Source of the DNA: an uncultured delta proteobacterium
Lineage (GTDB): Bacteria; Desulfobacterota; Binatia; Binatales; Binataceae
Reading direction: 5' to 3'
Assembly (NCBI GenBank): GCA_963842085.1
Contig: CAWJET010000001.1
Coordinates: forward strand, 736,001 to 800,000
DNA length: 64,000 nucleotides
A program made the position numbers and the translations under genes. This document shows positions 4,214-21,813 of the stretch, one piece after another; position 1 is the first letter of the stretch, and each line of letters starts with the position of its first letter. The notes below the pieces were generated by a model. It was not told where the DNA came from and did not search any database. It was given only the letters and a program-made list of their open reading frames with translations.

Positions 4214-4852
4214 ATGGTTCGCACGATTTTCGCATCAGCCTTTGCGAATCCGAGCAAACCTTTCAGGTTTGTTGGCCGCTATTCCTTTCTCGATTTCATA
4301 AACACCGAAGCCAACGAAACGGGTCGTCGCGTCAATTTGTTGACTGACGATCGGGATGTTGTGAATTGGCTCGCTTTAGCAAAGATGTTCGAGCGCAACA
4401 AACTGAAGTCGGCATTAGAACAATGGCAAGCGAGAAAAACAGGCGTGTGCATCTGGAAGGATGCGCTTGTGCTCCGTACGCTACTGCGTCGAATGGCCGA
4501 GGCGATTGTCGCGGACAAGCCGATTCCACGCGCCAGCATCGATGCGATCAACCTCTTGATCGCCAAGCCTTCGGGCGTCACGAAGGTAGTCAAGACTCCC
4601 TGGAAGTTCGAACGGCGATTCGAATTTGAACTGAATCAACCGAAACAACTTCTTGTGCCGCTCGCCCAGTCCGCCGCTGACTTGCTCTGCCGCGGAGATT
4701 TTTCGCGTCTAAAGCGTTGCGACAATTCGAACTGCGCCGCTTTCTTCTACGACACGAGCAAGAACCGGATGCGGCGATGGTGCAGCGGGGCTGAATGCGG
4801 AAACCGGATGAGGGTTGCGAAATTTTACGCCAGGAGTCGAAGCGACGATTGA
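4214..4852 (+). CDS. CGNR zinc finger / ABATE domain protein (putative regulator)
   Basis: LDFINT N-terminus; CDNSNC...FYDTSKNRMRRWCSGAECGNRMRV. Confidence 0.92.
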   Translation: MVRTIFASAFANPSKPFRFVGRYSFLDFINTEANETGRRVNLLTDDRDVVNWLALAKMFERNKLKSALEQWQARKTGVCIWKDALVLRTLLRRMAEAIVADKPIPRASIDAINLLIAKPSGVTKVVKTPWKFERRFEFELNQPKQLLVPLAQSAADLLCRGDFSRLKRCDNSNCAAFFYDTSKNRMRRWCSGAECGNRMRVAKFYARSRSDD

Positions 4853-4997
4853 AGGCGGACTACCGCTTCAGGTACGCGTCGCCATCCTGACAGTTTCGGA
4901 TTAAACTAACAGTTCGTCGCTCGCAGGTTGAGGTTCGCATAGCGCGTGCCTCGAGGGGACACGCTGACAGTGCATCGTTGAAGCAGGTAAATTCACC

Positions 4998-5845: not shown

Positions 5846-5879
5846 TGTGCAAAATCTGCACATGTGCAAAATCTGCACA
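5846..5879. repeat. Tandem duplicate of the 17-bp palindrome TGTGCAAAATCTGCACA (candidate bEBP enhancer)
   Basis: Two identical adjacent copies (5846-5862, 5863-5879), TGTGCA-N5-TGCACA. Confidence 0.75.
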
Positions 5880-6442: not shown

Positions 6443-7213
6443 TCAACCTTTTTTCCCAGTCACGATGAACATCACCCATGCAGCGAAGAAGCGACCCGCG
6501 TCGTTTCTTTCCTGAAGTTCAAGGAGCCAGGACCTCTTCTCGTCGGGGCTCACGATGCCTTCGTCTGCCGCATGCCCCGCGCCCAACGTAAGATCGAGCA
6601 GCCTGTCAGCAACTTGAAAGTCCTGCACCGTGATCGGAAGCGCTTCGACACGCACTTCTTGCAGGCCACGCTCCCGAAAAAGTACGGGGACCCGACGGCC
6701 AATCCATCCATTGCGAATTTTCCCGCAGACAAGATCAAGGATCTTGCGCGTAACCGCCTGGTCATTGGACTCGACGGCGACCAACCCCCAATCGCGGTCG
6801 ACAATCTGCACTGTTCCGCCCGGCTTAGTCACACGAACCATTTCCTCAAGTGCCACGCGCGGATCCGCAAGGTGTTGCAGGACTCGATCGGCTCGCGAAG
6901 CATCGAATGTGTCGCTGGAAAAACCAATGTGATGAGCTTCACAAACCACAAACTTCGGAAACGAAGAAACGTCTTTTGCCCGTCGCCGCGCCTCCGCGAT
7001 CATCTCCTCGCTGTAGTCGATACCCACTACTCGACCCCGAACTCCGACCAACCGCTTCAATTCGCATGCGTCCTGGCCAATGCCACAGCCCACTTCTAGA
7101 ACGACTGCTCCACGTTTCAGCCTCAGAGCGCGGTAGGAGCGCGCTTTCACGTCCTGGAAGTGAGCGCTCGCCATCTCCAGATACGATACCGCCGTATCCG
7201 CGTGCTCGCGCAT
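6443..7213 (-). CDS. SAM-dependent methyltransferase (UbiE-like)
   Basis: VLEVGCGIG, GIDYSEEM, DRVLQHL, VTKPGG; start uncertain. Confidence 0.85.
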   Translation of the reverse strand: MREHADTAVSYLEMASAHFQDVKARSYRALRLKRGAVVLEVGCGIGQDACELKRLVGVRGRVVGIDYSEEMIAEARRRAKDVSSFPKFVVCEAHHIGFSSDTFDASRADRVLQHLADPRVALEEMVRVTKPGGTVQIVDRDWGLVAVESNDQAVTRKILDLVCGKIRNGWIGRRVPVLFRERGLQEVRVEALPITVQDFQVADRLLDLTLGAGHAADEGIVSPDEKRSWLLELQERNDAGRFFAAWVMFIVTGKKG

Positions 7214-7444
7214 CCAGGTTGCCCAAAAAACATCCGGACAAATTGGTGCCGGTGTGTCAGTTTCCTTTCTTTCCACAAGTCCGCCTGCTGACCCCATCGA
7301 GTCCTACGAACTTAGTCGGCGAGCGAGCCGTGTAGCCGTTTCGACGACGCGACTGCCCGCACCTGGTCTTATGGGAGTGAGCCAACCCGATTCCCATCCG
7401 TAAATGACCGACGCTGCATTCCTCGTCAATCTGATCGAAGTCAT

Positions 7445-8002: not shown

Positions 8003-8104
8003 AATCTCTTTTCCGGTCTGGGCGTGATCGTCTTTGAGAACTTCCAGATTGTGAATGGCCTCAGCGAGTGTATCCTTTTAGCATCCCAGCGTTTCGCGAA
8101 GTCC

Positions 8105-9220
8105 TCAACGGCTTTGTGAGCGACCCCCGAGTCCCTGACCATAGCTCATCAAACTGCGGCCCCGATCCAACTCGGATGTCTGCCAGTTCTCCAAAGAGTC
8201 TGACAGCGTGTGCCTCTCCACAAGTTCTCTACTCAACGCAAAGGCATTCGCGATCCCTTTCGAGGTGCTCGAGGCCGTGTGGGGACGGATGACGAAGGAG
8301 GCATCCCCAGCCAGGATCGTCCGGTCAAACGCCAGCCGTGGACACGCGAGGTCCATAATCGCCTGCACAAAGGGCTCCTTTGTTGCCCTCAGCAGCGCTT
8401 TGAAAGCGGGCGGCAGAACCGATTCTGCGATGCTGCGCTGCTTGTGTTCCTGCTCGGGATGGAGTGCTCCGGGTGGAATGGCGTATGCCCGGCGGATCCC
8501 TTGGGCGTCAGTCAGCAAAGGTACTAACTCTTTTTCCGACGTGTTCCAGTACCAAACCCAATTGAGCCGCCGCCGCCCAGCTTCGGTGTTCCCCGATTCA
8601 CTCGGAATCAGATAGCAGAGGATGTGGCTGTCCGGCATTTGGAAGAATGTGAAATGATTGGCGAACACCTTCAAAATGTCTTCCGGAAGGTCAGCTTCAG
8701 GAACAACTCCGCGCCACGCAACATAGCCGGCATACTTGGGCTGAATCTCCGGCAAGAGTAACGCACGAACACCGGATCTGAAGCCGTCCGCACCAATTAA
8801 GAGATCGGCTGAGTCGTGAGTTCCGCCTTTGAAATACGAGGTGACTGACGATTCACCTTGCTCAAGATTCTGAAACTCATGGCCGAGATGATAGTTCTGC
8901 TCCGGGAAACTCTTCTTAAACCACGAGTAAAGGAGTCCCCAGGAGGTCATGAGTTGAGGCATCCGCTGAGATGAGACCACGGAGCCGTCTGCCGCCAGAT
9001 AGTGTCTGGTCGCCAGTCTGACGCCAACATCGCCGTCAGACTTCGCCCCGCAGAGACCAAGCATTTCAAGGGTCTCCGGTTGCATCACGATACCGGCGCC
9101 GCGATCGGAGAGTGTCTGCGAACTCCGTTCGAAGATGTTCACCTCCCAACCGATTCGACGGAGCAATATCCCTGCAGCCAGACCCGTGAGCGAGCCGCCA
9201 ATGACTGTCGCGCGCTTCAT
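8105..9220 (-). CDS. FAD-dependent monooxygenase (2,6-dihydroxypyridine hydroxylase-like)
   Basis: VIGGSLTGL, RGAGI, GADG, YAGYVAWRG, LNWVWY, GDASFVIRPHT. Confidence 0.88.
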   Translation of the reverse strand: MKRATVIGGSLTGLAAGILLRRIGWEVNIFERSSQTLSDRGAGIVMQPETLEMLGLCGAKSDGDVGVRLATRHYLAADGSVVSSQRMPQLMTSWGLLYSWFKKSFPEQNYHLGHEFQNLEQGESSVTSYFKGGTHDSADLLIGADGFRSGVRALLLPEIQPKYAGYVAWRGVVPEADLPEDILKVFANHFTFFQMPDSHILCYLIPSESGNTEAGRRRLNWVWYWNTSEKELVPLLTDAQGIRRAYAIPPGALHPEQEHKQRSIAESVLPPAFKALLRATKEPFVQAIMDLACPRLAFDRTILAGDASFVIRPHTASSTSKGIANAFALSRELVERHTLSDSLENWQTSELDRGRSLMSYGQGLGGRSQSR

Positions 9221-9233
9221 TCAATTCTGTCCG

Positions 9234-9941
9234 TCAAACTGCGCAGACGCCGTTTTCACAGTGACCGGTGGCACCCAGACCCCGCAGTATTGAGTCCGCG
9301 AGCAGCTTTTCTTTCTGAGCACCGTTGGCAACGACTTCCCCTTGAAACGAGATTTGAGGAACCCCCCGAATGCCGGCAGATGCGGCCATACGCTCCCCTG
9401 TTTTCACTTCGCTGACGAGCGCTGGGCTATCCAGATCTTCCACGCGCGAGATCGCAGTGACGCCGAACTCACGGGCTATGCCGAGCAGAGTGGCCGGATC
9501 ACCTACGTCTTCGCCGTTTAGGAAGTAGGCTTGGAAGAGCCGTTCTGCGTCTAGATTTTGTTTATGCACGCCGTCTTTCAAGGCCGCGGCGAGCAACACA
9601 TGCCCCCTGAAGGTGTTCGGTGTACGCTTCATCAGGTCATGGCGAAATCTGATTCCGACCTCCGCTCCCGCGGCGGACACCTGTGCATCGAGGCGTTGCG
9701 ACTGTTCCCAACTCCCGAACTTTGCTGAGCGGTACAATCGCCGGTCGAGGCCCTCGACAGGCATCTCGGGGTTGAGTTGGAACGGATGCCAACGGACCTC
9801 GAGCGTTTTGCCCAAGATAGACGACGCTCTCTCCAGACGACGCTTCGCCACGAAGCACCATGGACAAATCAAATCCGAAGTCACGTCGACGACCAGGCCG
9901 TCCGCGGGCGGCGCAATTCTATCTGTAAGATTCTCAGTCAT
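9234..9941 (-). CDS. DsbA-family (FrnE-like) oxidoreductase
   Basis: SDLICPWC, PFQLNP, GVP, C-terminal CENGVC. Confidence 0.9.
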   Translation of the reverse strand: MTENLTDRIAPPADGLVVDVTSDLICPWCFVAKRRLERASSILGKTLEVRWHPFQLNPEMPVEGLDRRLYRSAKFGSWEQSQRLDAQVSAAGAEVGIRFRHDLMKRTPNTFRGHVLLAAALKDGVHKQNLDAERLFQAYFLNGEDVGDPATLLGIAREFGVTAISRVEDLDSPALVSEVKTGERMAASAGIRGVPQISFQGEVVANGAQKEKLLADSILRGLGATGHCENGVCAV

Positions 9942-9980
9942 ATCTGAAGCTCCTACCTTCCCGGGTCAATCTAGCGACTA

Positions 9981-10016
9981 GGTAACCATTTGACTAGTAG
10001 GTACCGTTTGGTTACC
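9981..10016. promoter_or_regulatory. Inverted repeat between divergent FrnE-like and HxlR genes (candidate operator)
   Basis: GGTAACCA...TGGTTACC. Confidence 0.5.
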
Positions 10017-10024
10017 ATAGAGCA

Positions 10025-10393
10025 GTGAAAAAGGCGCCCGAATCAATCGATTCCGAACCCCTTTACGACCCGCAGTACCCAGCGCGACAGGTATTACGAG
10101 TCATTGCCGACACCTGGACGCCAATAGTTTTGTTCTGTCTCAAGCGGGGAACCCGACGTTTCAACGAACTCCAACGTTCCATCCCCGACATTTCCAGGAA
10201 GATGCTGACCCAAACCCTGCGAAAACTGGAACGCCGCGGACTTCTTGATCGCCTTGTTCACCCGGTAGTGCCTCCACACGTCGACTACACGCTGACACCA
10301 GTGGGCACGAAGTTCGCGGAGGCCGTAGCACTCATCTGCGAATGGGCGCAGAGAAATAAAGGCATTTTGAAACGAGTTAATTTCAATGATTGA
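10025..10393 (+). CDS. HxlR/DUF24 family transcriptional regulator
   Basis: RRFNELQRSIPDISRKMLTQTLRKLE...VPPHVDYTLT. Confidence 0.9.
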   Translation: MKKAPESIDSEPLYDPQYPARQVLRVIADTWTPIVLFCLKRGTRRFNELQRSIPDISRKMLTQTLRKLERRGLLDRLVHPVVPPHVDYTLTPVGTKFAEAVALICEWAQRNKGILKRVNFND

Positions 10394-10433
10394 GATAGAG
10401 GTTTAGAAACTTCAATTCGCAGGCTGAGCGCCA

Positions 10434-10500
10434 GGGCTCAGTGCGGAAACCGTATGAGGGTGGCGGCGTTTTACGCTCGGAGTCGAAGCGATGATTGAAG
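10434..10500 (+). pseudogene. Diverged remnant of a CGNR gene 3' end (repeat of 4788-4854)
   Basis: Encodes AQCGNRMRVAAFYARSRSDD*; 57/67 nt identical to 4788-4854 by manual alignment. Confidence 0.85.
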
Positions 10501-10537
10501 ATCGCAGTCCGTTGAAACACTCCGTTCACAAAGTGTG

Positions 10538-10554
10538 TGTGCCAAATCGGCACA
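10538..10554. promoter_or_regulatory. 17-bp palindrome TGTGCCAAATCGGCACA (candidate bEBP enhancer)
   Basis: TGTGCC-N5-GGCACA; 15/17 identical to the 5846 palindrome, with compensatory changes. Confidence 0.6.
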
Positions 10555-10614
10555 TAGCACACTTTCGGAAGGCGCAAAGATGACGCGAATCCTACAGTTC
10601 GTCGGATTTTTGTC

Positions 10615-10629
10615 TGGCATCCAACTTGC
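10615..10629 (+). promoter_or_regulatory. Sigma54 -24/-12 promoter upstream of xis-int
   Basis: TGGCAT-CCAAC-TTGC, about 70 bp upstream of ATG 10701. Confidence 0.7.
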
Positions 10630-10700
10630 GGTAGTGTTTTCCGCCAATTTCAGAACCTCTTCGACGGTAAAAACATAACCGAGCAACCCAGCAGGCGATC

Positions 10701-11003
10701 ATGAGCAGGCAAGCAGCAGAAGTTGGACTGCCAGAGAGCGAATATCTGACTGTCCCTGAGATCGCGAAAATTCTTCGACGCAATCGAAAGACCGTGTATG
10801 GCTGGATCGAATCTGGTGGGATTGGGGAAGTGGACGGTCTTTTCGTCGTGCAAGGACGTTACTTGATCCACTGGCCGACATTCCGATCCAGGCAGTTCAA
10901 ACCCCGCGTGAAACTGCGCGGTCAACTGCCGGAATACTCGGAGGAATCGCAAAATGGCATGGCTGGAAACGGACAGACACGGCCGCCTGAGAATCGGCTT
11001 TAA
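10701..11003 (+). CDS. Excisionase-like HTH protein
   Basis: YLTVPEIAKILRRNRKTVYGWIESG; overlaps the integrase start. Confidence 0.78.
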   Translation: MSRQAAEVGLPESEYLTVPEIAKILRRNRKTVYGWIESGGIGEVDGLFVVQGRYLIHWPTFRSRQFKPRVKLRGQLPEYSEESQNGMAGNGQTRPPENRL

Positions 11004-12222
11004 GTATTACGACGGCCTCAAATGTCGCGAGCCGCTCGGGGTGTCGGCAAACAAGCAGACCATCGCCGAGGCCAGGCGGCTTTGCGCGACGATACAGCTT
11101 GAGCTCAAGGCGAGAACTTTCGATTATGCCAAGCGATTTCCGGACAGCGACCGGATAAAGCAGCGCGGGATCGAGACGCCAGAGAAAATCCAACCGATCA
11201 GCGTCACTGAGCTCGCCGACAGTTGGCTGCTCAGCAAGCAAGGCGAGGTGAAGAAATCGACCCACGGCTACTACAAAGAAGTCGCGGGGATCTTCATTCA
11301 GCGCGACGCAATCGGGACGAAAACGGTCTCGGAATTACGTCAGGAAGACATCGATCGCTGGCGCGTACGGGTCGACGAGAAACAAACCAAGGGCAACGAA
11401 CCGCTGAGCACGCGGCGGAAGAACATGGCGTGGGATGTCCTGAATCAAATCCTGGAGTTCGCTCGCGTCCGGAAACTGCTCAACGAAGACCTCCTGCTCG
11501 GGATGAAGCCATTTAAGGATTCCGGCCAAGCAAACGACGACGATTCCGAACTCTCGGACGAGCCGGAAGATGCCGAAGTGATGCCGTATAACGCGGATCA
11601 GATTGAAGCGATCATCGCGGCGGCGGAGGGCTGGGAACGCGCTCTTGTAACGCTCTATTTCTTTACCGGAATCCGACGCGGCGAAGCGCTCGCTCTGACT
11701 TGGGACAGGGTCTACCTCGATCGTGACCGGGCACTGATCAACCGCAGCCTCAGCGTCCGATATGGCATCACGACGCCGAAGACGAAGAGCAGCCGGCGCA
11801 TGATCCAGTACGGTCCAAGGGTTCGCGCAGAGCTGTCGAAGCAAAGGGAAAGAGTCCAGCTACGCAGCAAGTACGTCTTCCCCAATGAGAGCGGCGCTGC
11901 GCCCAATGTACGCTGGGCGACTGACGTGGTCTGGCGCCGAATTCTCACGCGAGCTGAAGTTCCGCACAGACCAATCGGGCAGTGCCGTCACAGCTTCGCG
12001 GTCCTCGCGCTGAAGCAGCACAAACCGCTCAACTGGATTCAACGGCAGATGGGTCACCGCACGCTGCAAATGTTGTTGAAACATTACTGGCGCTGGATAC
12101 CGACCGACGATCTTTCTGCGGAAGAAATGTCTTCGTTGGAGAGCGCAGCGGCGCCGTTGGCCTCAAATCATGCCCACCCTGTGCCCACCCGGCCCGAAAC
12201 CGGGACCGAAGCGGGCTCGTAA
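10954..12222 (+). CDS. Tyrosine recombinase/integrase with N-terminal arm-binding domain
   Basis: TGIRRGEALALTW, PKTKSS, QCRHSFA, QMGH, catalytic Y in LKHYW; adjacent to a tRNA 3' end. Confidence 0.93.
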   Translation: MAWLETDRHGRLRIGFKYYDGLKCREPLGVSANKQTIAEARRLCATIQLELKARTFDYAKRFPDSDRIKQRGIETPEKIQPISVTELADSWLLSKQGEVKKSTHGYYKEVAGIFIQRDAIGTKTVSELRQEDIDRWRVRVDEKQTKGNEPLSTRRKNMAWDVLNQILEFARVRKLLNEDLLLGMKPFKDSGQANDDDSELSDEPEDAEVMPYNADQIEAIIAAAEGWERALVTLYFFTGIRRGEALALTWDRVYLDRDRALINRSLSVRYGITTPKTKSSRRMIQYGPRVRAELSKQRERVQLRSKYVFPNESGAAPNVRWATDVVWRRILTRAEVPHRPIGQCRHSFAVLALKQHKPLNWIQRQMGHRTLQMLLKHYWRWIPTDDLSAEEMSSLESAAAPLASNHAHPVPTRPETGTEAGS

Positions 12223-12257
12223 AACAATGATTCAGATCGGGAAAAACCCAATAAAAC

Positions 12258-12349
<92 letters not shown>

Positions 12350-12657
12350 GCTCAATAAAATCAAGTATCTATGCGGTATTCGCCTTAGGAGCAACCTCCC
12401 AAAGTGTCCCGGATTTTTCGAGCCGGTCGTCAGACTCATCGCCAACCTGTCCACCGAATCAGTCTCCACGTTCTTGAACTGGTACCATCTCGCTGGCCTG
12501 AACTGTTCGACGAATTCGGTTACGCGCTGGGCTAACGGAGTTTCGTCGCGGACCTTGCTTGACGTCGCGAATCGCATGGTGCTTTGCTCCTATCGAGGAA
12601 GAGGAGATCTGCATCGCCGCTCATCTGCAGTAGTCTGCTGAGCGAGAGAAAGGCGTC

Positions 12658-13458
12658 ATGGAACCAATCGCATACGTCGCGCGCCTGAACGAGTTCTATC
12701 GAAGTCAGGGATTTCCTGTGTACCAGTGGACGATCAATGAAAGCGCGCCGCTCACTCCGCTGAAAAAGTCGTTGGCTGGTTGCCGGGTGGCGATGCTCAC
12801 GTCGGGCGGAGTCTCGCGCAAGGATACGCCACCGTTCAATCCCCAGGCGCGCAACGATTTGAGACTCGACGCCGTCGACAAGGAAACCTCGCCCCAGTTC
12901 TTCGCCATCAACGACGACTACTACAATCACCGCGACGCGGACCGGGACATCAACTGCATTTTCCCGATCGAGCGACTCCGCGAGTTGCAATCCGAGGGCT
13001 TGATCGGTGAAGTCGGGCCGCATCATTACAGCGGCTTTATGGGGCGCATCTACACCCGCAGTGCGGTGGTGAACGAGGCCGCGCCGGCGCTGGCGCGGCG
13101 GCTGCGGGATGAGAGAATCGACGCGTTCGTCCTGGTGCCCGCTTGACCGCTCGATCACCAGACCGTTGGTCTGGTAGCGAGGGTGGTAGAGGAAGCAGGC
13201 ATCCCGACCGTTGTAGTCTCGACCGGCCGCGATCTGAGCGCCCAGGTTAGACCGCCGCGCACGGTTTTCGTCAATTTCCCGATGGGAAATCCGTTCGGCA
13301 AACCATTCGATAAAGGTCAGCAGCGCAAGATTCTGCTCGACGCGCTGCACGCACTTGAATCGGTGAAGACCGGCGGCGGAATTATTGATCTCCCATATGA
13401 GTGGGGCAAGGAATTCGCAATGAACCTGGGTTCCGGCTATCGCGCGAAGAGCGCGTAG
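12658..13458 (+). CDS. Selenoprotein, glycine/sarcosine/betaine/D-proline reductase B (GrdB/PrdB) family; Sec163 at TGA 13144-13146; 266 aa
   Basis: ORFs 12658..13146 and 13183..13458 are in frame. Readthrough gives FVLVPA-U-PLDHQTVGLVARVVEEAGIPTV. Family motifs VAMLTSGG and DADRDINCIFPIERL. Confidence 0.88.
13157..13175 (+). promoter_or_regulatory. SECIS-like hairpin
   Basis: ACCAGACC-GTT-GGTCTGGT perfect 8-bp stem; loop G follows 18 nt after the UGA. Confidence 0.7.
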
Positions 13459-13466
13459 GAGTTTTT

Positions 13467-13871
13467 GTGACGGTGAAGCTCAAGAAGACGCTCAGGCAAA
13501 TGCTGGCGGAAGCAAATGCGGAGATAGAGACGGTTAGTGCCGCGGACGCGATCAAGCTCAAAGGTGATTCGGACCTGGTATTCGTGGACATCCGGGATAT
13601 CCGCGAGCTTGAACGCGACGGCCGGATTCCAGGCGCGTTTCACGCACCGCGCGGGATGCTCGAATTCTGGGTCGATCCCGAGAGTCCGTACCACAAGGAG
13701 ATCTTCGCCTCGGGCAAAAAATTCATCTTCTTCTGAGCGGGCGGAGGCAGATCTGCGCTGGCAGCGCAGACCCTTCAGCGCATGGGACTCGCACCGGTCT
13801 GTCACATGGGCGGCGGCTTTACGGCATGGAAAGCGGCTGGCGGACCGGTGGAGGGTGGAAAAGTCTCGTGA
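13467..13871 (+). CDS. Selenocysteine-containing single-domain rhodanese; Sec at TGA 13734-13736
   Basis: AGGAG RBS then GTG. Readthrough gives KKFIFF-U-AGGGRSALAAQTLQRMGLAPVCHMGGGFTAWKAAGGPV, with TGA exactly at the catalytic Cys position. Confidence 0.88.
13752..13770 (+). promoter_or_regulatory. SECIS-like hairpin
   Basis: TCTGCGCT-GGC-AGCGCAGA perfect 8-bp stem; loop G follows 23 nt after the UGA. Confidence 0.65.
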
Positions 13872-13947
13872 TGGATAAGGGCTTCGCTTACTGTCTCTCG
13901 GGCTCGAATTCGAGAAAATACTGGTAGGTTGATTTGCGCGCCCGCTA

Positions 13948-14592
13948 TCATGCGCGGCGCGCGACGAGCGCGTAATGATATTTGAACAAGCGCTCGCCTT
14001 CGATCCGCAAACCCATACGCTCCATCCGATCACGCGCTTCGGCAGCGGTGTAAACATGATCCCTTGGAGGACCCACCGGCCGTTCGACGCCGGCGTTCCA
14101 GTCAACTACGAGCACGGTTCCGGCCGGCTTGAGCAGGGCAACCATCGCACGCAGCGCGTCATCGCCGAGCTCATGCAGGACGTTGAGCGCGAGCACGCGA
14201 TCGGCCGTTCCATTCAGCTTCTTAATTTCATCGGTATGAAGCGCTTTAAGATTTGAGAGCTTTTGTGCCGCAGGCTTCGCCCGCAACAGCTCGAGCATCT
14301 GCTGCTGTTCGTCGAGTGCAGTCACCTCCAGGTCGGGCCGCGATCGCGCGAGCTCGATCGCGTAGGTTCCGATGCCCGTGCCGAAATCCACGACACGGCT
14401 GCCGGTCGGCGCCGCCAGCATCTCGAAGATCTCATCGGGCGGCAGGTACCCGAAGCGAAATGGGTCGTCGAGCAGCGCCGCCCGGGCCGGGTCGAAGCGC
14501 TCGGGCTGACGGGCGCCATGCCGATCGTCATCGCCATGTGCGCCGTGGCGATGGCTGCCGTGATGGTGCGAGTCGTGCTGATTTTTTTCCAT
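13948..14592 (-). CDS. Class I SAM methyltransferase with His-rich N-terminus
   Basis: VVDFGTGIG, NVLHEL, VVDW...PVGPP; N-terminal HDSHHHGSHRHGAH. Confidence 0.85.
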   Translation of the reverse strand: MEKNQHDSHHHGSHRHGAHGDDDRHGARQPERFDPARAALLDDPFRFGYLPPDEIFEMLAAPTGSRVVDFGTGIGTYAIELARSRPDLEVTALDEQQQMLELLRAKPAAQKLSNLKALHTDEIKKLNGTADRVLALNVLHELGDDALRAMVALLKPAGTVLVVDWNAGVERPVGPPRDHVYTAAEARDRMERMGLRIEGERLFKYHYALVARRA

Positions 14593-14728
14593 GAGGAATC
14601 CCTCCATGCGGGCTGAGCGCAACTTGACGCGCGGCTTGATTTCATCGCGACTTCTCCCAACATCGGAGGCAGCACGCGTGGATGATGATTGCTGCCATCA
14701 GAATGCACCGATCGCCGCCACGCGTCGA

Positions 14729-15280
14729 TCAGATTGAGCCTCCATCTATTCGCTCAATGCGACCGCGGCGAACATGCCGCACCAGTGGCGGCGACGTTCT
14801 GCCCAGCCGTTGCAAAATTCTTGGCTCGCTAATTTTTTCGGCGCAGAAGCCGCGAACGTATTGAACCAGCGCCACGATCTGGTCGTAGCCCAACGTTCCG
14901 CCAAAGGCCGGCATTCCGGCCGGAAACCCCGCCGCCGCGGCGCCATCCTTGATAACCAGGAATATGGTCGCGTCGGACATCATCGACATCCAGCCACAAT
15001 CCGTAAAACTACGGAGATGAACTTGCAATTGCGGAGCCTCGGGGCCGTCGCCCTGACCCGAACGGCCGTGGCAGTGTGCACATTGGCTCTGGTAGAGGGT
15101 CTGCGCCGTGAGAGGATGCGCCGCATCAGGATTGAGATCGGCGGCTCTGGCGCCGGCGGTTAGGCTCAACAACGGAAGCGCCGCGACCAAGGTGCGGATG
15201 TACCCTGGTCTATGAGCTTTGGGCGGCGCTTTAGCTCGACCTGGTGCGAAGCTCAGTGTATTTGCAGCGTTCTCAGCCAC
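14729..15280 (-). CDS. Monoheme cytochrome c
   Basis: CAHCHG...GDGP, GMPAFG, signal-like segment; start uncertain. Confidence 0.8.
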   Translation of the reverse strand: MAENAANTLSFAPGRAKAPPKAHRPGYIRTLVAALPLLSLTAGARAADLNPDAAHPLTAQTLYQSQCAHCHGRSGQGDGPEAPQLQVHLRSFTDCGWMSMMSDATIFLVIKDGAAAAGFPAGMPAFGGTLGYDQIVALVQYVRGFCAEKISEPRILQRLGRTSPPLVRHVRRGRIERIDGGSI

Positions 15281-15921
15281 GCCACAAGATCTTCGAGTTG
15301 CTTACGATCGAGGACCCCGGAGAACGCAGGCATTGTGCGGCGACCGCGCATCACAATCTCTTGAAAGTCATTGAACCTATAGAGGATCGGCTGCTGAACG
15401 AGGTTCGGTCCTTGTTTACCGCGCGCGTCAGCTCCGTGGCATTCAGCGCAGGCGTTAGTGAAGACGCCCGCGCCGGCGCGTGCGTCTCCATGGAATCTGA
15501 CGGGGTCCGCCAGCGGCTCGACGGAATCCAACAGGGCAACGCTGGGCGATTCAGGCGCAGCCATCGGCACGGCTCCGAGCGGAAACTGGCTGGACAGATA
15601 ATCAGCCAGCGACTTTTCCTGATCGGCAGGGAGCGGTGCTCCCCAGTTCCGCATTTTTTTGACCTCTGCTTGCCACTGCTCGGGTGTCAGTCTCTGCTGG
15701 ATCATCATTCCCCGGTCATGGCAGATCTCGCAGTGATCTCGCATTTCAGCCGCTTCGGCCCGCTGCGCTGCGCTCCCGGCCGTTCCGGCCAGCACACGGG
15801 TCGAGAGCAGAAGCAACGCTGGGACTACGAGCCACATTCGCCGCGGAAGGCTCGCCCACTGGAATGAACGATGGTTCCCAGCTGCACGTTCTCGCATCGC
15901 GATTCGAATGAGCGCTGCCAT
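15253..15921 (-). CDS. Diheme cytochrome c (SorB-like partner of sulfite oxidase)
   Basis: CEICH and CAECH; QQRLTPEQWQAEVKKMRNWGA; ATG overlaps the upstream stop (TGATG). Confidence 0.82.
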   Translation of the reverse strand: MAALIRIAMRERAAGNHRSFQWASLPRRMWLVVPALLLLSTRVLAGTAGSAAQRAEAAEMRDHCEICHDRGMMIQQRLTPEQWQAEVKKMRNWGAPLPADQEKSLADYLSSQFPLGAVPMAAPESPSVALLDSVEPLADPVRFHGDARAGAGVFTNACAECHGADARGKQGPNLVQQPILYRFNDFQEIVMRGRRTMPAFSGVLDRKQLEDLVAWLRTLQIH

Positions 15922-17096
15922 CAGGCGATCCTGCAATGAACTCGATCGATGCCGTTCCACAAATAGCCGCCATGATTCCAAGGCGTCGTTTCCGGCTGCA
16001 CTCTGCCTGAGGAATCGGTGGCGCGCGCGGCGATTGTATACGCTCCTTGCGTCGCCGCTTTCCACCGATAACGCCACAGTTGCCATGCGCCCTCAGATTC
16101 CTTGCCCTCAAGTTCGGCGCGAGCCCACGAGCGGCCGCCATCCAGCGACACTTCGACGTTGACCACGTGTCCCATGCCGGTAAAAGCTACTCCCGAGACC
16201 AGGTTGTCGCCGGGCGGCATGACCGAACCTTCCAACGGCCTTGCAATCAACGATTTGACCGGGTTGATGGCGACCGGAACTTCAGGCGCGGGTGCGATGC
16301 CTTTTTGCGGAACTGGTTGCTGCGGCATCCTGTACGCAGTCTGCATGTAGAAGCCCTCGGCCTCATGCTCCTGAAAGTCGATTCGGCGCAACCATTTGTA
16401 CCAGTGATCGCCGGCCCAGCCCGGTACCACCATGCGGAGCGGGCCACCATGCAACATCGGCAGCGGCTCGCCGTTCATTTCGAAGGCAAGCAGCGTGCCC
16501 GGATCGAGTGCGCGCTCGATGGGAATGCTGCGGGTAAACGAAGGAGTTGTGGGCATGGGAGCGGAGTCATAGCCGCGCATCTGCATGTGACCGGCGCCGG
16601 GTTTGATGCCTATGCTCTTCACTACGTCGCGCAGGCGGACCCCTGTCCACAGAGCGTTGCCAACCGCGCCGCGCTGCCACTGGACGCCCGGCACTGACGG
16701 ATGAAAAAAGGCGCGCCCGTTGCCTGCGCATTGAAGCGTTGCCGGCAAGCGCACGATTTCGAACTTGCGCAGGTCCTCGAGGGTCAGGCTGCGAGAGCTA
16801 TCGACGAGGCCGCCAATCTCGAGTCTCCATTGTTCTTGAATGATAGCGGGTGGGCCAAAATGACTTCGCACGAAAAACACCGCATTGGGAGTAATCGAGG
16901 AAGCCAGATACTCGACCGGCGTCTCCAAGTCCTGCGGCCGGGAAAGCCGAACAATCAGTGAGTCGTGCTCATGCACCATTTCAGCAGCGCGACCGATTGC
17001 CGGCATGCCGCTCACCAACGCCAGAGCACCCACACTCCGCGAAAGATGCCTGAGAAATCGGCGTCGCGACCACAACTCAGTGGATAATCGGCTCAC
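15921..17096 (-). CDS. Sulfite oxidase family molybdoenzyme (SorA/SoxC-like), Tat-exported
   Basis: SRRRFL Tat motif, FFVRSH, LQCAGNGR, NGEPLPMLHGGPLR, KWL, ARATD, WNHGGYLWN. Confidence 0.92.
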   Translation of the reverse strand: MSRLSTELWSRRRFLRHLSRSVGALALVSGMPAIGRAAEMVHEHDSLIVRLSRPQDLETPVEYLASSITPNAVFFVRSHFGPPAIIQEQWRLEIGGLVDSSRSLTLEDLRKFEIVRLPATLQCAGNGRAFFHPSVPGVQWQRGAVGNALWTGVRLRDVVKSIGIKPGAGHMQMRGYDSAPMPTTPSFTRSIPIERALDPGTLLAFEMNGEPLPMLHGGPLRMVVPGWAGDHWYKWLRRIDFQEHEAEGFYMQTAYRMPQQPVPQKGIAPAPEVPVAINPVKSLIARPLEGSVMPPGDNLVSGVAFTGMGHVVNVEVSLDGGRSWARAELEGKESEGAWQLWRYRWKAATQGAYTIAARATDSSGRVQPETTPWNHGGYLWNGIDRVHCRIA

Positions 17097-17208
17097 TTCA
17101 CACCTCCGCCAATATAAAGGATATGTGGCAGGTTTTCATCGCGAATGATCAGGAGCCATGAGTGCCAATGGTCACAACCAACGACCTCGCGCACTGCTTC
17201 CGCTTCGG

Positions 17209-18255
17209 CTAACCAATCCATCCGAGCAGTATGGCGCCAAGCGTGGCGGTTCCCATCAGCAGCCAAAGAACGAAGCCCTGGATTAGGGGGCGCCGCCCAA
17301 CCATCTGAAGGGCGCTGCGGCTCAGCCCGGAGCCGATCAGAAACAAGGTGACCACCAACGAACGTTGCGCGCCGAGGAATATCGTGTGGCCAGCGGGTTT
17401 CAGCGCAGGTACCCATGTCACCAATGCTGCGGCGGCGATAAATCCCAGGATGAACCACGGCCGCCTGGCCTTGCCCGCAGGCGCGTCTGGGTTTCCGCGG
17501 TTCCAAACCATTCCGACGGCGAGGGTCACGGGCACTATCCAAAGCGCTCGGGTAAGTTTGATGGTGGTAGCGATCTCAAGCGCGCGTGCGCCGTATTGCA
17601 TCGCCGCTCCGACTACTGAGCTCGTATCGTGAATGGCAAGCGCGCTCCACACTCCAAACTGTGCCTGACTCAAACCGAAATAGTGCCCGATCCACGGAAA
17701 GATGAACAAGGCGACCGCGTTGAGGAAGAACACTGTCGCCAGCGCCACGGAAACCTCATGACTTTTGGCTCGGATCGCGGGAGCGACCGCCGCGATGGCG
17801 CTGCCGCCGCATATTGCCGTACCTACGGTTACCAGCAGCGAGGTGTCCCGTTCGGTCCGAATCAATCGGCCCAAAACCAGACCAAGGGTCATCGTGAGTG
17901 TGATGCCGATGACCGTGTAAAAGAAGCCATGGACACCGGCGTGCCCTACTTCAACGAGATTCATGCCGGCCCCCAGACCGATGACCGAGATTTGCAGCAA
18001 GGGAGTGATCAGCCGCGCGGTGGTAAAGGGATAACCATTGCCCAAAGTGAGGGCCACGCAGATGCCCAGCATCAGCGCGATGCCGGGCGAGACGAACGGC
18101 AACAGCGTCGCGCATGCCGCGATTGGAAACGCGATGCGGGCAGCGACCGTCGCGGGATTGGCGCGGCTGAACTCATGGCGCCAGCCAGCCGGCGCCGCTG
18201 GGACGAAATCCTCCTTCGGTTTCGTGGCCTCCGACGTGCGCATCGCGCCGGTCAT
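17209..18255 (-). CDS. YeiH/UPF0324 family putative sulfate exporter
   Basis: GTAICGGSAIAA, AIHDTSSVVGA, KLTRALWI; ATGA-coupled to arsR. Confidence 0.9.
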   Translation of the reverse strand: MTGAMRTSEATKPKEDFVPAAPAGWRHEFSRANPATVAARIAFPIAACATLLPFVSPGIALMLGICVALTLGNGYPFTTARLITPLLQISVIGLGAGMNLVEVGHAGVHGFFYTVIGITLTMTLGLVLGRLIRTERDTSLLVTVGTAICGGSAIAAVAPAIRAKSHEVSVALATVFFLNAVALFIFPWIGHYFGLSQAQFGVWSALAIHDTSSVVGAAMQYGARALEIATTIKLTRALWIVPVTLAVGMVWNRGNPDAPAGKARRPWFILGFIAAAALVTWVPALKPAGHTIFLGAQRSLVVTLFLIGSGLSRSALQMVGRRPLIQGFVLWLLMGTATLGAILLGWIG

Positions 18256-18620
18256 GCTCGCACGCGAGCGGGGAGCGCTCCGACCTGCGCTTCGAGCCGG
18301 TCGCGCAGTCTCGCGCAGACCATTTCGCACAACTCGAAGACCATTTCGTCGGCGATCGAATAGAAGGCGCTGTTGCCTTCGGGTCTTCGTCTCACCAGTC
18401 CGGAATCCTGCAGAATCCGCAGGTGCTTGCTGACGTTGGGCTGCGTCGAGCCGACGCTTTGGGCGAGCGCGGAAACCGAGCGCTCGCCCTGCTCGAGTTC
18501 GTGCAGGATGCGCAGGCGCAGCGGTTCGCCCATCGCCCTGAAGCGTGCTGCCACCATCTCCAGCGCTTGCGGGGTCAAGGCGCGCCGCGACTTTGGCCTG
18601 AAGCCGTTTCTTGCCTTCAT
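18252..18620 (-). CDS. ArsR/SmtB family regulator with C-terminal CxxxC
   Basis: EPLRLRIL...QPNVSKHL...EGNSAFY...LCEMVC. Confidence 0.9.
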   Translation of the reverse strand: MKARNGFRPKSRRALTPQALEMVAARFRAMGEPLRLRILHELEQGERSVSALAQSVGSTQPNVSKHLRILQDSGLVRRRPEGNSAFYSIADEMVFELCEMVCARLRDRLEAQVGALPARVRA

Positions 18621-18699
18621 GAGTAAATAGTTATATATCGACCTGGTCTCGAGTCAAACGCGGCGCCGCCGGTTTCATTCCGGCGCAAGGAAAAGCCCC

Positions 18700-19737
18700 A
18701 TGTTCTTTCGAGAATTGAACCGTGGAAAGTGCAAAACCTACATGCTCGGATGCGAGCGCACGCGGCGCGCCGCGGTGGTGGACCCGCTCAAAGAAAACAC
18801 CGCACGCTACATCGCGATCGCCGCGTATCGTGGCTTCCGGCTGGATTATGCGATCGACACGCACACCCACGCCGACCATCGCAGCGGCACCTGGGACCTC
18901 GCCGGATTAACCGACGCGAAGGTCGTAATGGATCGCCACGCCCCCGCGCCTAACGTCGACGTCCACGTTTCAAACAGCGATGTTCTCGAGGTCGGCGACC
19001 TGCGCGTGAAGTTCATGTTCACGCCCGGGCACACGCCCGACGGAATCAGCCTCTACGTCGACGGGCACGTGCTGACCGGCGACACCTTGTTGATTGGCGG
19101 CACCGGGCGAGCGGACTTTCCCGGTGGCGACGCCGGAAAACAATACGACGCGATCACCGGCCTGCTGTTCAAACTGCCGGACGACACGCTCGTGTTTCCC
19201 GCGCACGACTATCGCGGTAATCGGTGCTCGACGATCGGAAAGGAGAAAGCCACTAATCCGCGGGTTGCCGGGCATACACGCGACGAATACATCAGCATCA
19301 TGAATAATCTCGGCCTGCCGCTGCCCGACAAGATTCAGGAGGCACTGCAGGCCAATCAAACCGCGATCGAAGACGACTCCCTCAAATTCCCCGATGTCGC
19401 GCAGCTGAGCAGCGTTCATCAGGCAAGCGTTCCCGAATTGCGGGACCGCCTCGCCGGCGGGAACCCGCCGATCGTGCTCGACGTACGCGAACCAGACGAA
19501 TACCACGATGAACTTGGGCACATTCCGGGCAGTAGATCGATCCCGCTGAGAGCTTTGCCGAGTGAAGCGGGCAAACTCGAGAACCTGAAACACAGCGACA
19601 TCGTAGTCGTGTGCCGCGCCGGCGTACGCAGCAGCACCGCCGCCGCGATCCTCACCGCACTCGGTTTCGAACACGTGACCAACCTCAAGGGCGGGATGCT
19701 CGAATGGAACGAGGCCGGCCTGCCGGTGGAGCGCTAA
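18700..19737 (+). CDS. Persulfide dioxygenase (ETHE1-like MBL)-rhodanese fusion
   Basis: THTHADH, TPGHT, TGDTLLIGGTGRADF, PAHDY; C-terminal DVREP...VCRAGVRS...GGMLEW. Confidence 0.92.
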   Translation: MFFRELNRGKCKTYMLGCERTRRAAVVDPLKENTARYIAIAAYRGFRLDYAIDTHTHADHRSGTWDLAGLTDAKVVMDRHAPAPNVDVHVSNSDVLEVGDLRVKFMFTPGHTPDGISLYVDGHVLTGDTLLIGGTGRADFPGGDAGKQYDAITGLLFKLPDDTLVFPAHDYRGNRCSTIGKEKATNPRVAGHTRDEYISIMNNLGLPLPDKIQEALQANQTAIEDDSLKFPDVAQLSSVHQASVPELRDRLAGGNPPIVLDVREPDEYHDELGHIPGSRSIPLRALPSEAGKLENLKHSDIVVVCRAGVRSSTAAAILTALGFEHVTNLKGGMLEWNEAGLPVER

Positions 19738-19744
19738 TCGCGCC

Positions 19745-19843
19745 ATGCACGATTTCACGCCGGTCGCATCGCTCATCGGCGGTATTCTGATCTGCTTAAC
19801 CGGGGGGACGCTGCGGTCCGCGTCGGACGCGCTGGTCACGTGA
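19745..19843 (+). pseudogene. Remnant N-terminus of a YeeE/YedE sulfur transporter
   Basis: MHDFTPVASLIGGILICLT resembles the YeeE/YedE start (FTPxxxLxGGxLIG), then stops after 32 aa. Confidence 0.6.
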
Positions 19844-20082
19844 TTAAAGACTGAGAAGCATCGTGGTGGCTGATACTTCGGGTTCGAACCTCGAATGCGC
19901 TTCGTCATTCAGCCGCGAATTCGCGCGTTCGTAACAATCGAATCATCATGTCGTAACCGACGCTGGCTAGTTTTCCGCCGGCATGAAGCCTGTACTGGGC
20001 TTTTGTACGCAGGTCCAGAGCGAACACGGGTTTCGTAAGTGCTCTTGGAGCAGCAGTCGATTCCGGGGAGTACCCAGGGAGG

Positions 20083-21813
20083 GTGATGATGAGACGAACG
20101 ATCGGAATAATTGCGCTGTCGATGCTTGGTGCGGCGTTGATGCTCTGCGCCGTCGCGATCACACCGATGCCGGCGTGGAGCCAGGACGGGCGCGCGCTCA
20201 TGCTGTACACCGATCCCGCCAGCGGCCAGGTGTTCACCAAGCGATGCAAACATTGCGTCAGGCTCGGCGAATACGTCCCTGCCGGATCGACCGAAGAGAT
20301 CGAGCGCAAGGTCGAGGCGAAGACTCAGCAGCAACTCGAGCAGGAACGCGCTGCGATGCAGTCCGACATGGCGCAAAGGGCGGCCCAGCAGCAGCAGTGG
20401 AACGCCGAGATGGCCAAGCAGGTCTCCGAGATCCAGCCGTTCGCACAGGAGTTCGGCGATCGCTGGTACAAGAAGATCTCGCTCGGCACGCTGATCTACG
20501 GCGATTATGGCTACTTCAGCCACACCGGATTCGGCCCGCAGTTCCTGACTCAGCAGAACTGGCCCGGTCCCGGCAACAACAGCTTCAACTCGTTCAATAT
20601 CACGCGCGCATACATTGATTTCAAATTCACGCCTGTGGACGACATCTCAGCACGCGTGACGCCCAACATTTACGCGGCGGTTAACACCGGGACCACCTGC
20701 ACGACGTCCTCGACGTCAACGTCAACCGGCGGAATAAAAACTACTACGAAGACTACATGCACCGCGAGCAGCGGCGACAAGGTCGGTGCCAACAGCGCAT
20801 ACGGCCAGAGCCAGGATCAAGACCTCTCCTACCGCTTGAAGTACGCGTATATCGACTACAATACCTTCTTCAAAAAGGTTTTGAAGTTCGAACCGATGAG
20901 CGACGACAAGTTCACCTTCGGCCAGCAGCAGAATCCGCTGGTGGACTGGGAGGAGAACCTGTGGGGCTTCCGCTACACCGCCTTGACGCCGTGGAACTAT
21001 CTGAGCTTGAGTTCGTCGCAGGTCGGCGTTTCGATGAAGGGGCCGATCAAAGTTAACGAGACGCAGTACGCCGATTACGATTTCGGCGTGTTCGACGATG
21101 CCAGCTTCCACGCTATCGAGCAGAGCGCTTGGAAGCAGGTTATGGGTCGCGTAACGATTAATCCTTTAGGCGCCCACTCACGCTACGATAGCCTTGGTCT
21201 GACCGGCTTCTACGACTACGGCTACTCGAACAAATGCACGCCCGACGTGAGTTCTATTCCAGGAAGCAACACCACATGCGGGCATATGGCGCGCGCATCG
21301 GCGCTCGTGCACTACACCGCCGAGAGCTGGGGCGTTATCGGCGAGTGGGATTACGGCCACAATGCGTTCAGCAGCGGCAACCTCTTTTCGGGCAGCGGGC
21401 CTTCCGACGCGGTCGGTATCACCAGTTCCGGCCCCAGCAGTTTTACGGCCTGGAACAAGATGGTCGGCAATATTCTCAACAACGGTCAGGCGATACAGAT
21501 GGGCGCGGATTTGCTCGGCCACTGGGACATCCCGCACACCCCGTTCACCCTCTTCGGCCTGGTCGAGTGGTTCCAGCCCAACACGCGTATCGATAAAGAC
21601 CCGCTCGACTTCACCCGCTACGATTTGGGAGTGCAGTGGCTGATTAACAAATATTTCCGGGTGGCGTTCGATTCACAGGCCGAGCAGTACTATCACAGTC
21701 AGTTCACGTACCCGGCAACGGCGGTGCCGGGCCAGGCGAAGACGCCCGCGGTGCCGTACGCGGTGCCGCGCGATACGCACGCATTCTTCCTGAACCTGGA
21801 ATTCAGGTACTAG
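20083..21813 (+). CDS. Outer membrane porin-like beta-barrel protein
   Basis: Signal peptide, coiled coil, FNITRAYI, RLKYAY, terminal FLNLEFRY. Confidence 0.7.
   Translation: MMMRRTIGIIALSMLGAALMLCAVAITPMPAWSQDGRALMLYTDPASGQVFTKRCKHCVRLGEYVPAGSTEEIERKVEAKTQQQLEQERAAMQSDMAQRAAQQQQWNAEMAKQVSEIQPFAQEFGDRWYKKISLGTLIYGDYGYFSHTGFGPQFLTQQNWPGPGNNSFNSFNITRAYIDFKFTPVDDISARVTPNIYAAVNTGTTCTTSSTSTSTGGIKTTTKTTCTASSGDKVGANSAYGQSQDQDLSYRLKYAYIDYNTFFKKVLKFEPMSDDKFTFGQQQNPLVDWEENLWGFRYTALTPWNYLSLSSSQVGVSMKGPIKVNETQYADYDFGVFDDASFHAIEQSAWKQVMGRVTINPLGAHSRYDSLGLTGFYDYGYSNKCTPDVSSIPGSNTTCGHMARASALVHYTAESWGVIGEWDYGHNAFSSGNLFSGSGPSDAVGITSSGPSSFTAWNKMVGNILNNGQAIQMGADLLGHWDIPHTPFTLFGLVEWFQPNTRIDKDPLDFTRYDLGVQWLINKYFRVAFDSQAEQYYHSQFTYPATAVPGQAKTPAVPYAVPRDTHAFFLNLEFRY

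Follow-up and report, generated by a model that had tools for sequence, protein, structure and literature searches.

Two selenoprotein genes beside a putative reactive-sulfur detoxification cluster in a strain-variable block of a Binatia genome

Gene content and selenocysteine decoding

A 64,000-nucleotide stretch of DNA from an uncultured soil bacterium of the Binatia (contig CAWJET010000001.1, positions 736,001 to 800,000), called the window here, carries two adjacent genes with in-frame TGA codons next to a group of sulfur-metabolism genes. Coordinates are positions in the window; L-numbers denote relative loci and G-numbers genomes, G000 being the window's own genome. A first-pass annotation had described these genes as a two-selenoprotein operon joined to a persulfide and sulfite oxidation cluster, and open reading frame lists, translations and Pfam and NCBIfam scans of the window showed that every gene it listed is present. 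On the + strand, a gene for a PrdB-like protein is followed, after 8 bases, by a rhodanese gene. Convergent to this pair, on the - strand, lie genes for a methyltransferase, a monoheme cytochrome c, a diheme cytochrome c, a SorA-type sulfite dehydrogenase, a YeiH-family membrane protein and an ArsR-family regulator. A gene for a fusion of persulfide dioxygenase (PDO) and rhodanese is divergent from the regulator gene, on the + strand. In two studies, four other soil runs yielded contigs that match this region with 0-1 differences and span the junctions between the pair and the methyltransferase gene, the methyltransferase and YeiH genes, the SorA and PDO genes, and the PDO gene and the gene that follows it. 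Because these contigs reproduce and bridge the gene layout, it is not an assembly artefact.

The first gene of the pair (12658-13458, + strand) encodes a stand-alone PrdB/GrdB-like selenoprotein of 266 amino acids. Its in-frame TGA at 13144 corresponds to residue 163, a selenocysteine (Sec, U) within the motif P-A-U-P-L-D-H-Q-T. The protein scored 34.5 bits against PF07355 (GRDB), above the cut-off of 22, and 148 bits against the PrdB model TIGR04483, under the cut-off of 300 (residues 29-250, E = 3e-43); it is homologous to the C-terminal half of GrdB. Its 810 database relatives are automatically annotated as PrdB or selenoprotein B. When 81 loci were aligned, the Sec column held U (TGA) in 70 and cysteine (Cys, C; TGC or TGT) in 11. 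All 81 had U/C-P-L-D at this point, and the U-x-x-C of PrdB was absent. With a PF07355 score above the gathering score, a Sec/Cys column and a Sec-specific hairpin, the protein falls within the stand-alone PrdB-like group. Its predicted structure was confident (pLDDT 94.1). A Foldseek search of the model against PDB gave nothing at E <= 0.001, a wide VIA fold search gave generic Rossmann-like matches only (best Z 8.7, to LacI-type and SDR chains), and a sequence search of solved structures gave 0 matches; no pointer to a function came from any of them.

The second gene (13467-13871, + strand) has a GTG start behind AGGAG and encodes a single-domain rhodanese of 134 amino acids. The TGA at 13734 places Sec90 where the catalytic cysteine would stand, in the loop U-A-G-G-G-R (U-x4-R). 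A six-residue catalytic loop (Cys/Sec-x4-Arg) marks a sulfurtransferase-type rhodanese, and the protein has such a loop together with a PF00581 score of 66.2 bits (cut-off 22.2). It scored 35.4 bits against NF041203, the model for rhodanese-related (seleno)proteins of form 3 (cut-off 115), and 19.2 bits against the form 5 model TsoB, NF045694 (cut-off 805), and thus lies under both. In having PF00581 and Sec in the catalytic loop it resembles the rhodanese-like selenoproteins of forms 1-5 in the cited sections of PMC13188914, and U-A-G-G suits the 'UxxG' of forms 2 and 4; its scores set it apart from forms 3 and 5.

Both in-frame TGAs encode selenocysteine, as the first-pass annotation had read them. 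The genome contains selB (367.5 bits, cut-off 242; on contig C1, outside the block that holds the pair) and tRNA-Sec (70.9 bits, gathering score 47), a hairpin specific to Sec forms lies downstream of each UGA, Cys homologues align at both UGAs, and both TGAs were unchanged in contigs from the second study (P2). In the PrdB-like gene a hairpin of the selenocysteine insertion sequence (SECIS) type, with an 8-bp inner stem and a G-U-N loop, lies at 13146-13187 (+ strand), after the UGA at 13144-13146; the inner stem begins 13 nt past the UGA, and the fold energy is -23.1 kcal/mol (z = -2.3). The 7 core pairs are intact in 65/70 Sec forms versus 1/11 Cys forms, and the loop is GUN in 70/70 versus 1/11. 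Retention of this loop in the Sec forms explains why their motif ends in ...HQTV and that of the Cys forms mostly in ...HQTA. The SECIS-type hairpin of the rhodanese gene (13752-13770, + strand; 8-bp stem, GGC loop) lies 18 nt past the UGA at 13734-13736. It was identical in 12/12 Sec forms examined and retained in 1/11 Cys forms, and Sec and Cys forms alike encode R-S-A-L-A-A-Q at this site. On the single sequence it was seen only as a centroid structure.

The sulfur genes, referred to as module B, occupy 14729-19795. The ArsR/SmtB-family regulator (18252-18620, - strand) scored 88.2 bits against NF033788 (cut-off 55) and did not reach the cut-offs of the BigR (NF040642; 47.2 bits, cut-off 155) and TsoR (49 bits) models; its only cysteines, C98 and C102, both lie in the last helix. 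The PDO-rhodanese fusion (18700-19737, + strand) combines a Lactamase_B fold carrying HxHxDH with a C-terminal Rhodanese domain whose loop is C-R-A-G-V-R, and matched the Blh model (NF040641) over the dioxygenase part only, at 101 bits (cut-off 625). The YeiH-family membrane protein, a putative sulfate/sulfite exporter (17209-18330, - strand), scored 175 bits against PF03601 and 100 bits against TIGR00698, under the cut-off of 232.6. The SorA-type catalytic subunit (15921-17096, - strand) is predicted to be exported by twin-arginine translocation (Tat) from its SRRRFLR motif. It matched Oxidored_molyb (194 bits) and Mo-co_dimer (55 bits) and remained under the cut-offs of both NF052245 (SorA; 305 bits, cut-off 600) and NF052247 (SorT; 248 bits, cut-off 570). 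Next to it are a diheme c-type cytochrome (15253-16086, - strand; 2 CxxCH) with a SorB-like first haem domain (NF052246 SorB 43.8 bits, under the cut-off of 93), whose real start probably lies near 15837, where a stretch resembles a signal peptide, and a monoheme c-type cytochrome (14729-15280, - strand; Cytochrome_CBB3 and Cytochrom_C domains, 1 CxxCH). The YeeE remnant named in the first-pass annotation is real, though tiny: about 17 codons (19745-19795, + strand) correspond to the N-terminus of a half-size YeeE/YedE protein (PF04143). DNA homology to locus L019 stops at 19795, and at this place, after PDO, L019 has intact PF04143 and DUF6691 genes.

Judged by its domain content, namely ArsR, PDO-rhodanese, YeiH, Tat-SorA and cytochromes c, module B belongs to a familiar type of reactive-sulfur detoxification cluster. 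Staphylococcus aureus has a comparable arrangement in its cst operon. In the cited passages of PMC5823870, the bigR operon of Xylella and Agrobacterium (BigR, Blh) likewise has an ArsR-type regulator divergent from a PDO-rhodanese, with membrane proteins for sulfur oxyanions or YeeE-type channels; unlike that operon, the window has a regulator and a fusion that fail the BigR and Blh models, and a SorA-type enzyme and two cytochromes are attached. With SorAB and SorT (NF052245, NF052247) the SorA-type enzyme shares a molybdopterin domain, a dimerisation domain, a Tat signal and a cytochrome c gene directly downstream. It differs from them in that the cytochrome partner is diheme, a further monoheme cytochrome is next, and the scores lie below both cut-offs.

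Gene neighbourhoods in related genomes

A block of about 7.4 kb (roughly 12530-19917) differs from strain to strain. On its left the variable region is bounded by a tRNA-Ser(GCT) gene (12258-12349, - strand; found with ARAGORN). An integrase gene (10954-12222; Phage_integrase and Arm-DNA-bind_2 domains) lies on the far side of the tRNA gene. The same-genus genome G100 shares window positions 8104-12351 at 93% and no further, and a second same-genus genome matches the right flank at 84%, starting at about 20074. A 60-nt element at the left border (12477-12536) has 84-93% matches in G040, G058 and G084, and a 40-nt element at the right border (19918-19957) has 93-98% matches in G022, G040 and G100; these could be recombination sites or the ends of conserved genes. 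Loose ends of contigs in soil runs fell at 12482 and 12527 (run X5) and at 19917 and 19957. Neither an att-like direct repeat nor a GC shift was seen in the block, and the corresponding block of L019 adjoins no tRNA or mobile-element gene.

Neighbours of the PrdB-like gene were surveyed with one genome per species; 136 relatives were found and 80 loci kept. In 10 of the 80 the next gene in tandem codes for a Sec-rhodanese, and 4 further loci have a different Cys-rhodanese at a distance of about 1 kb or less. SorA, YeiH, ArsR, the diheme cytochrome and PDO occurred near the PrdB-like gene only in L019 (1/80), and there the entire cluster has the opposite orientation to that in the window. The closest relative, L017 (88.6% nucleotide identity), is homologous to window positions 12611-13877 only. 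The recurrent linkage expected of this PrdB-like subfamily was therefore found with rhodanese and not with PDO or SorA. Whole-genome searches found no SorA orthologue in two of five genomes. G003 has a SorA-like gene (40% identity) at a distance of 12.5 kb from the pair; with no other cluster gene alongside, it was not scored as linkage. Enoyl-CoA hydratase, acyl-CoA dehydrogenase, AMP-ligase and SDR genes, each within 6 kb in 7-13 of 81 loci, were judged, with no formal test, to be genome background.

The recurring family-wide neighbour of the PrdB-like gene is a methyltransferase. In unbiased neighbour clustering, methyltransferases of four families formed the top non-self clusters, and these families occur across many phylum- or class-level labels. 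A methyltransferase gene lay within 1.6 kb of the PrdB-like gene in 37/81 loci and within 300 bp in 25, and the same profiles matched 4.15% of 20,000 random intervals of the window's own genome. Methyltransferase density was 0.166/kb near the PrdB-like gene, 0.013/kb more than 5 kb away in the same loci and 0.012/kb genome-wide, an enrichment whose size may be inflated, as the HMMs were built from proximal neighbours of the PrdB-like gene. The link was also found in Cys-form PrdB-like loci (7/11). Our literature search found no link between PrdB-like proteins and methyltransferases, and no selenoproteins in Binatia.

In the window, the methyltransferase gene (13948-14622, - strand) encodes a class I S-adenosylmethionine (SAM) methyltransferase of 224 amino acids, closest to the ArsM/UbiE/CpaM branch and below all cut-offs. 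Because its orthologues flank the pair in L042 (80% identity) and L110 (420 bits) and a lone Sec-rhodanese in L113 (260 bits), the gene is, by this comparison, to be assigned to the Sec genes and not to the SorA operon. Its N-terminus is rich in histidine (about 10 in residues 16-35), which hints at metal or metalloid binding. A second methyltransferase gene at 6446-7297 (- strand) matched the profile of the family that lies directly upstream of the PrdB-like gene in Binatia-like loci (E = 1.9e-88); it is 5.4 kb from the PrdB-like gene, beyond the integrase and tRNA genes, and the segment 6390-8103 is missing from G100.

Stand-alone 'proline reductase PrdB' selenoproteins have been catalogued from ocean metagenomes, where the cited passages assign them no function (PMC1088965, PMC2398784). 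They are among the commonest selenoproteins of ocean surveys and are frequent in soil genomes, with no assigned role since 2005. The protein described here agrees with that group, as presented in these passages, in its PF07355 domain, its length of about 266 amino acids, Sec or Cys at one position and its abundance in non-fermenting bacteria. The ocean tables list UxxC (Table 2 of PMC2398784), and all 81 loci here have U/C-P-L-D; links to a Sec-rhodanese or a methyltransferase are absent from the passages on the ocean PrdB group. As in the grdA-grdB and prdB-prdC operons (PMC13188914), the gene for a B-type selenoprotein stands beside that for a second, small selenoprotein; unlike there, the small partner is a rhodanese, and the genome gave no match to PrdA or GrdA. 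An operon of PrdB-like and rhodanese genes is not among the selenoprotein operons in the operon section of that 2026 review. Both selenoprotein families are thus already catalogued in the cited parts of PMC1088965, PMC2398784 and PMC13188914, and the associations described here are new leads.

PrdB-like Sec paralogues were present in 69/151 genomes sampled from the class, with up to five per genome. G000 itself has a second one outside the window (G000:C1:1776204-1776929; 44% identity, one in-frame TGA), with no match to the methyltransferase profiles within 15 kb. In 12 genomes of genus g16 (for example G091:C1:2297403 and 2325845), and likewise in G092, from another family, a PrdB-like Sec paralogue of 35-40% identity lies 28-50 kb from a PDO orthologue. 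This proximity is probably inherited regional synteny and no operon.

A second survey was centred on the rhodanese gene and comprised 11 tandem loci (the window included), 12 loci from class genomes and 80 metagenome loci, 103 in all. At 97% nucleotide identity these formed 91 groups, 30 of Sec form and 36 of Cys form; the other 25 had another loop motif, were left unclassed and do not enter the Sec/Cys counts. Metagenome contigs were often short, and only loci with enough flank are in the denominators. The PrdB-like gene lay directly upstream in 16/26 assessable Sec-form groups versus 2/30 Cys-form groups, a methyltransferase gene lay within 2.5 kb in 10/25 versus 0/31, and a PDO cluster lay within 7 kb in 5/21 versus 0/28. 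The five PDO-adjacent lineages are those of the window, L019, L118, L126 and L132. The last four share only 71-84% DNA identity with each other and have a common order: Sec-rhodanese, convergent YedE2, YedE1 and PDO, and divergent ArsR. No PrdB-like gene was found in the 8 kb upstream of the Sec-rhodanese in L132, nor in the readable 607 and 379 nt upstream in L118 and L126. The PrdB-like protein is therefore not required for the link between rhodanese and sulfur cluster. Because 5/21 Sec-form and 0/28 Cys-form lineages are PDO-adjacent, at least one of them (L132) without a PrdB-like gene, it appears to be the Sec-rhodanese that links the selenoprotein genes to the sulfur cluster.

In the rhodanese tree the Sec forms make up one clade nested among Cys forms, and two Cys forms that follow a PrdB-like gene lie inside it. 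The five PDO-positive rows fall in four sub-branches of one supported 20-row clade. On this tree the adjacency to PDO may be old and often lost, not repeatedly gained. In L121 a 49-residue C-terminal PrdB-like remnant (L121:4910-5056) lies directly upstream of the Sec-rhodanese, which suggests that the tandem can decay and leave the Sec-rhodanese alone. In two genomes of one genus the Sec-rhodanese is flanked by a two-domain rhodanese and a 325-residue protein of metallo-beta-lactamase fold (L042:7756-9780, L099:6860-8755). The two-domain rhodanese resembles 3-mercaptopyruvate sulfurtransferase (167 bits, below cut-off), and a CMD/AhpD-like gene lies alongside. The metallo-beta-lactamase-fold gene was considered as a close PDO homologue and ruled out, as it gave no phmmer match and no NCBIfam match.

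A possible role in sulfur detoxification and its alternatives

From the genes, their decoding and the neighbourhood counts we infer the chemical steps of a selenoprotein module and its coupling to module B. In this tentative reading, to which we give a probability of roughly 0.4, the variable block holds three modules that are linked by the Sec-rhodanese and act in coupled sulfur detoxification. An ArsR-family repressor would control module B. The PDO-rhodanese fusion would oxidise low-molecular-weight persulfide to sulfite, YeiH would carry the oxyanion out of the cytoplasm, and Tat-exported SorA would convert sulfite to sulfate in the periplasm, with both cytochromes c, diheme and monoheme, receiving the electrons. 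The two-gene selenoprotein cassette is module A, and its rhodanese would be a selenium version of the free ('dissociated') rhodanese of PDO operons. Sec90 would hold sulfane sulfur as an Se-S adduct and transfer it to a thiol, a step that would yield persulfide for PDO and keep sulfane sulfur low. The PrdB-like protein (Sec163) and the SAM methyltransferase would form a second branch, travelling with the rhodanese and dispensable for the rhodanese-PDO link, in which the Sec nucleophile would most likely reduce some sulfur or selenium compound, with methylation before or after. Should the rhodanese link prove right, selenium would here take the place of sulfur at the carrier stage of sulfide detoxification.

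According to the cited passages of PMC9163753, free rhodanese domains occur widely in sqr-pdo operons, and in one case such a domain raised PDO activity several-fold. The small stand-alone rhodanese beside PDO resembles those operons with a free rhodanese or DUF442, and a PDO with its own fused rhodanese is one of the three types distinguished there by Ran et al. 2022. Unlike the sqr-pdo operons of these passages, the locus has a catalytic Sec, a rhodanese that lies outside the PDO operon, convergent to it, and is usually co-oriented with a PrdB-like selenoprotein gene, and no gene for SQR in the block. A sulfane-sulfur connection is plausible for the rhodanese, since the Sec clade recurs beside PDO-YedE-ArsR(-YeiH) clusters; the counts establish no such connection for the PrdB-like enzyme. 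The proposal of the first-pass annotation that both selenoenzymes may feed the sulfur route is thus supported in part, for the rhodanese.

A number of observations weigh against coupled detoxification. No sulfur cluster lies near 79/80 PrdB-like genes or near 16/21 Sec-rhodanese lineages. In the genomes of L017 and L022 a distance of more than 1.6 Mb separates the PDO orthologue from the PrdB-like gene; in those of L018 and L021, and in six class-sample genomes carrying a PrdB-like orthologue, it is on another contig (ten genomes in all). PDO orthologues occur in 48/151 sampled genomes of the class, and this rhodanese family in 17/151, so that PDO does not need this rhodanese. The window cluster is inverted relative to the other four PDO-positive loci, and its YedE genes, which elsewhere adjoin the rhodanese, are cut to 17 codons. 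Related genomes are not independent in the neighbourhood counts, and because all five positive lineages lie in one clade, the adjacency was perhaps inherited once; the methyltransferase enrichment may, as said, be inflated. The Sec pair and the sulfur cluster, being convergent, are not co-transcribed, and the ArsR/PDO promoter region has no word of at least 8 nt in common with the sequence upstream of the PrdB-like gene. The PrdB-like orthologue and the rhodanese were found in none of five same-genus genomes; the block as a unit is present in 0/5, with scattered PDO, YeiH-ArsR and methyltransferase pieces matching elsewhere. With regard to one conserved module, the PrdB-like gene adjoined the cluster in 1/80 loci and the Sec-rhodanese a PDO cluster in 5/21 lineages, all of one clade. 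The join of operon and cluster first described is supported in part: a tandem Sec-rhodanese recurs after the PrdB-like gene, and the Sec-rhodanese recurs beside PDO clusters. Should the rhodanese-PDO link fail, the locus would amount to an annotation correction for two genes that had been ended early at TGA, beside an ordinary sulfur cluster.

The same facts could reflect a chance mosaic, in which a variable region by the tRNA-Ser and integrase genes has gathered two accessory modules that have nothing to do with each other, the sulfur cluster and the Sec cassette with its methyltransferase. The confinement of homology with L017 to the pair, the single PrdB-like locus with an adjoining cluster, the convergence without a common operator word and the diverse contexts of both the pair and the rhodanese all fit such a mosaic, as does the absence of the block from five same-genus genomes that retain its flanks at 84-93%. 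In L119, moreover, the pair stands directly before a homologue of another gene of the window (orf576, below) and has no sulfur cluster. Against this, PDO is single-copy, so chance would place it within 7 kb with a probability well under 1% per locus, and yet five divergent Sec-rhodanese lineages have it there and none of the 28 Cys-form lineages do. The adjacency has also outlasted the inversion between the window and L019, and the block has neither the att-like repeat nor the GC shift of a recent island. We regard a mosaic as rather unlikely, though it deserves serious weight. A role of the block in selenium handling, with YedE-type import, the Sec-rhodanese as perselenide carrier, reduction by the PrdB-like protein and methylation of excess, would explain the sulfur enzymes by the similarity of sulfur and selenium. 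The Sec-rhodanese does adjoin YedE-family genes in four lineages, and YedE has been proposed as a selenium transporter from comparative genomics (cited passages of PMC5322559); the neighbouring methyltransferases are nearest to ArsM-type metalloid methyltransferases and methyltransferase selenoproteins (NCBIfam), all below cut-offs, and the His-rich N-terminus points the same way. The YedE genes concerned are, however, half-size PF04143 and DUF6691 genes in the PDO operon, truncated in the window, and not the ten-helix YedE of those passages. In addition, the methyltransferase link extends to Cys-form PrdB-like genes, selD, selA and selB lie outside the block, with selB elsewhere on contig C1, and no selenium-specific family model reached its cut-off. 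Selenium handling therefore seems to us quite improbable.

It is very improbable that the PrdB-like gene encodes a true subunit of a Stickland-type reductase (D-proline, glycine or betaine reductase) unrelated to sulfur. The homology to PrdB and to the C-terminal half of GrdB, and the automatic annotation of its relatives as 'D-proline reductase PrdB', would agree with such a role, but the TIGR04483 score is far under the cut-off and the motif is U-P-L-D, as opposed to the U-x-x-C given for PrdB in Table 2 of PMC2398784. Neither PrdA (TIGR04480) nor GrdA (PF04723) gave a match in G000, which is rated 100% complete, although the control genomes gave no match either, and most carriers bear labels of aerobic-type lineages, soil and marine. 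Betaine reductase, in which the leaving group is an onium, offers a model for a methyl-activated substrate. The PrdB-like protein, the methyltransferase and, in Binatia-like soil bacteria, the Sec-rhodanese might form a three-part selenium-dependent entry into sulfur oxidation. Sec would reductively cleave a sulfur or selenium compound, perhaps methylated to an onium leaving group, and the rhodanese Sec may accept the chalcogen and pass the product to the PDO and sulfite dehydrogenase route. We consider the three-part entry improbable; if true, it would be a new selenium-dependent entry to sulfur oxidation and the first function for the PrdB-like family. Coupled detoxification through the Sec-rhodanese remains the reading we prefer. 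Testable leads are the methyltransferase neighbour across lineages, the Sec-rhodanese as operon partner in one soil clade, and the PDO adjacency of Sec forms only.

Other features of the window

A promoter and terminator scan gave counts no higher than the shuffled expectation. Two copies of a 67-nt direct repeat with 85% identity lie 5.6 kb apart, at 4788-4854 and 10434-10500, and a 17-nt palindromic word occurs near each copy, at 5846-5879 (in tandem) and at 10538-10554. The arrangement of repeats and words resembles a duplication of regulatory regions upstream of the integrase gene. At 20083-21813 (+ strand), a 576-residue protein (orf576) begins like a signal peptide, matches no Pfam or NCBIfam model and is conserved in same-genus genomes. 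Its homologue in metagenome locus L119 is the one that lies directly after the Sec pair.

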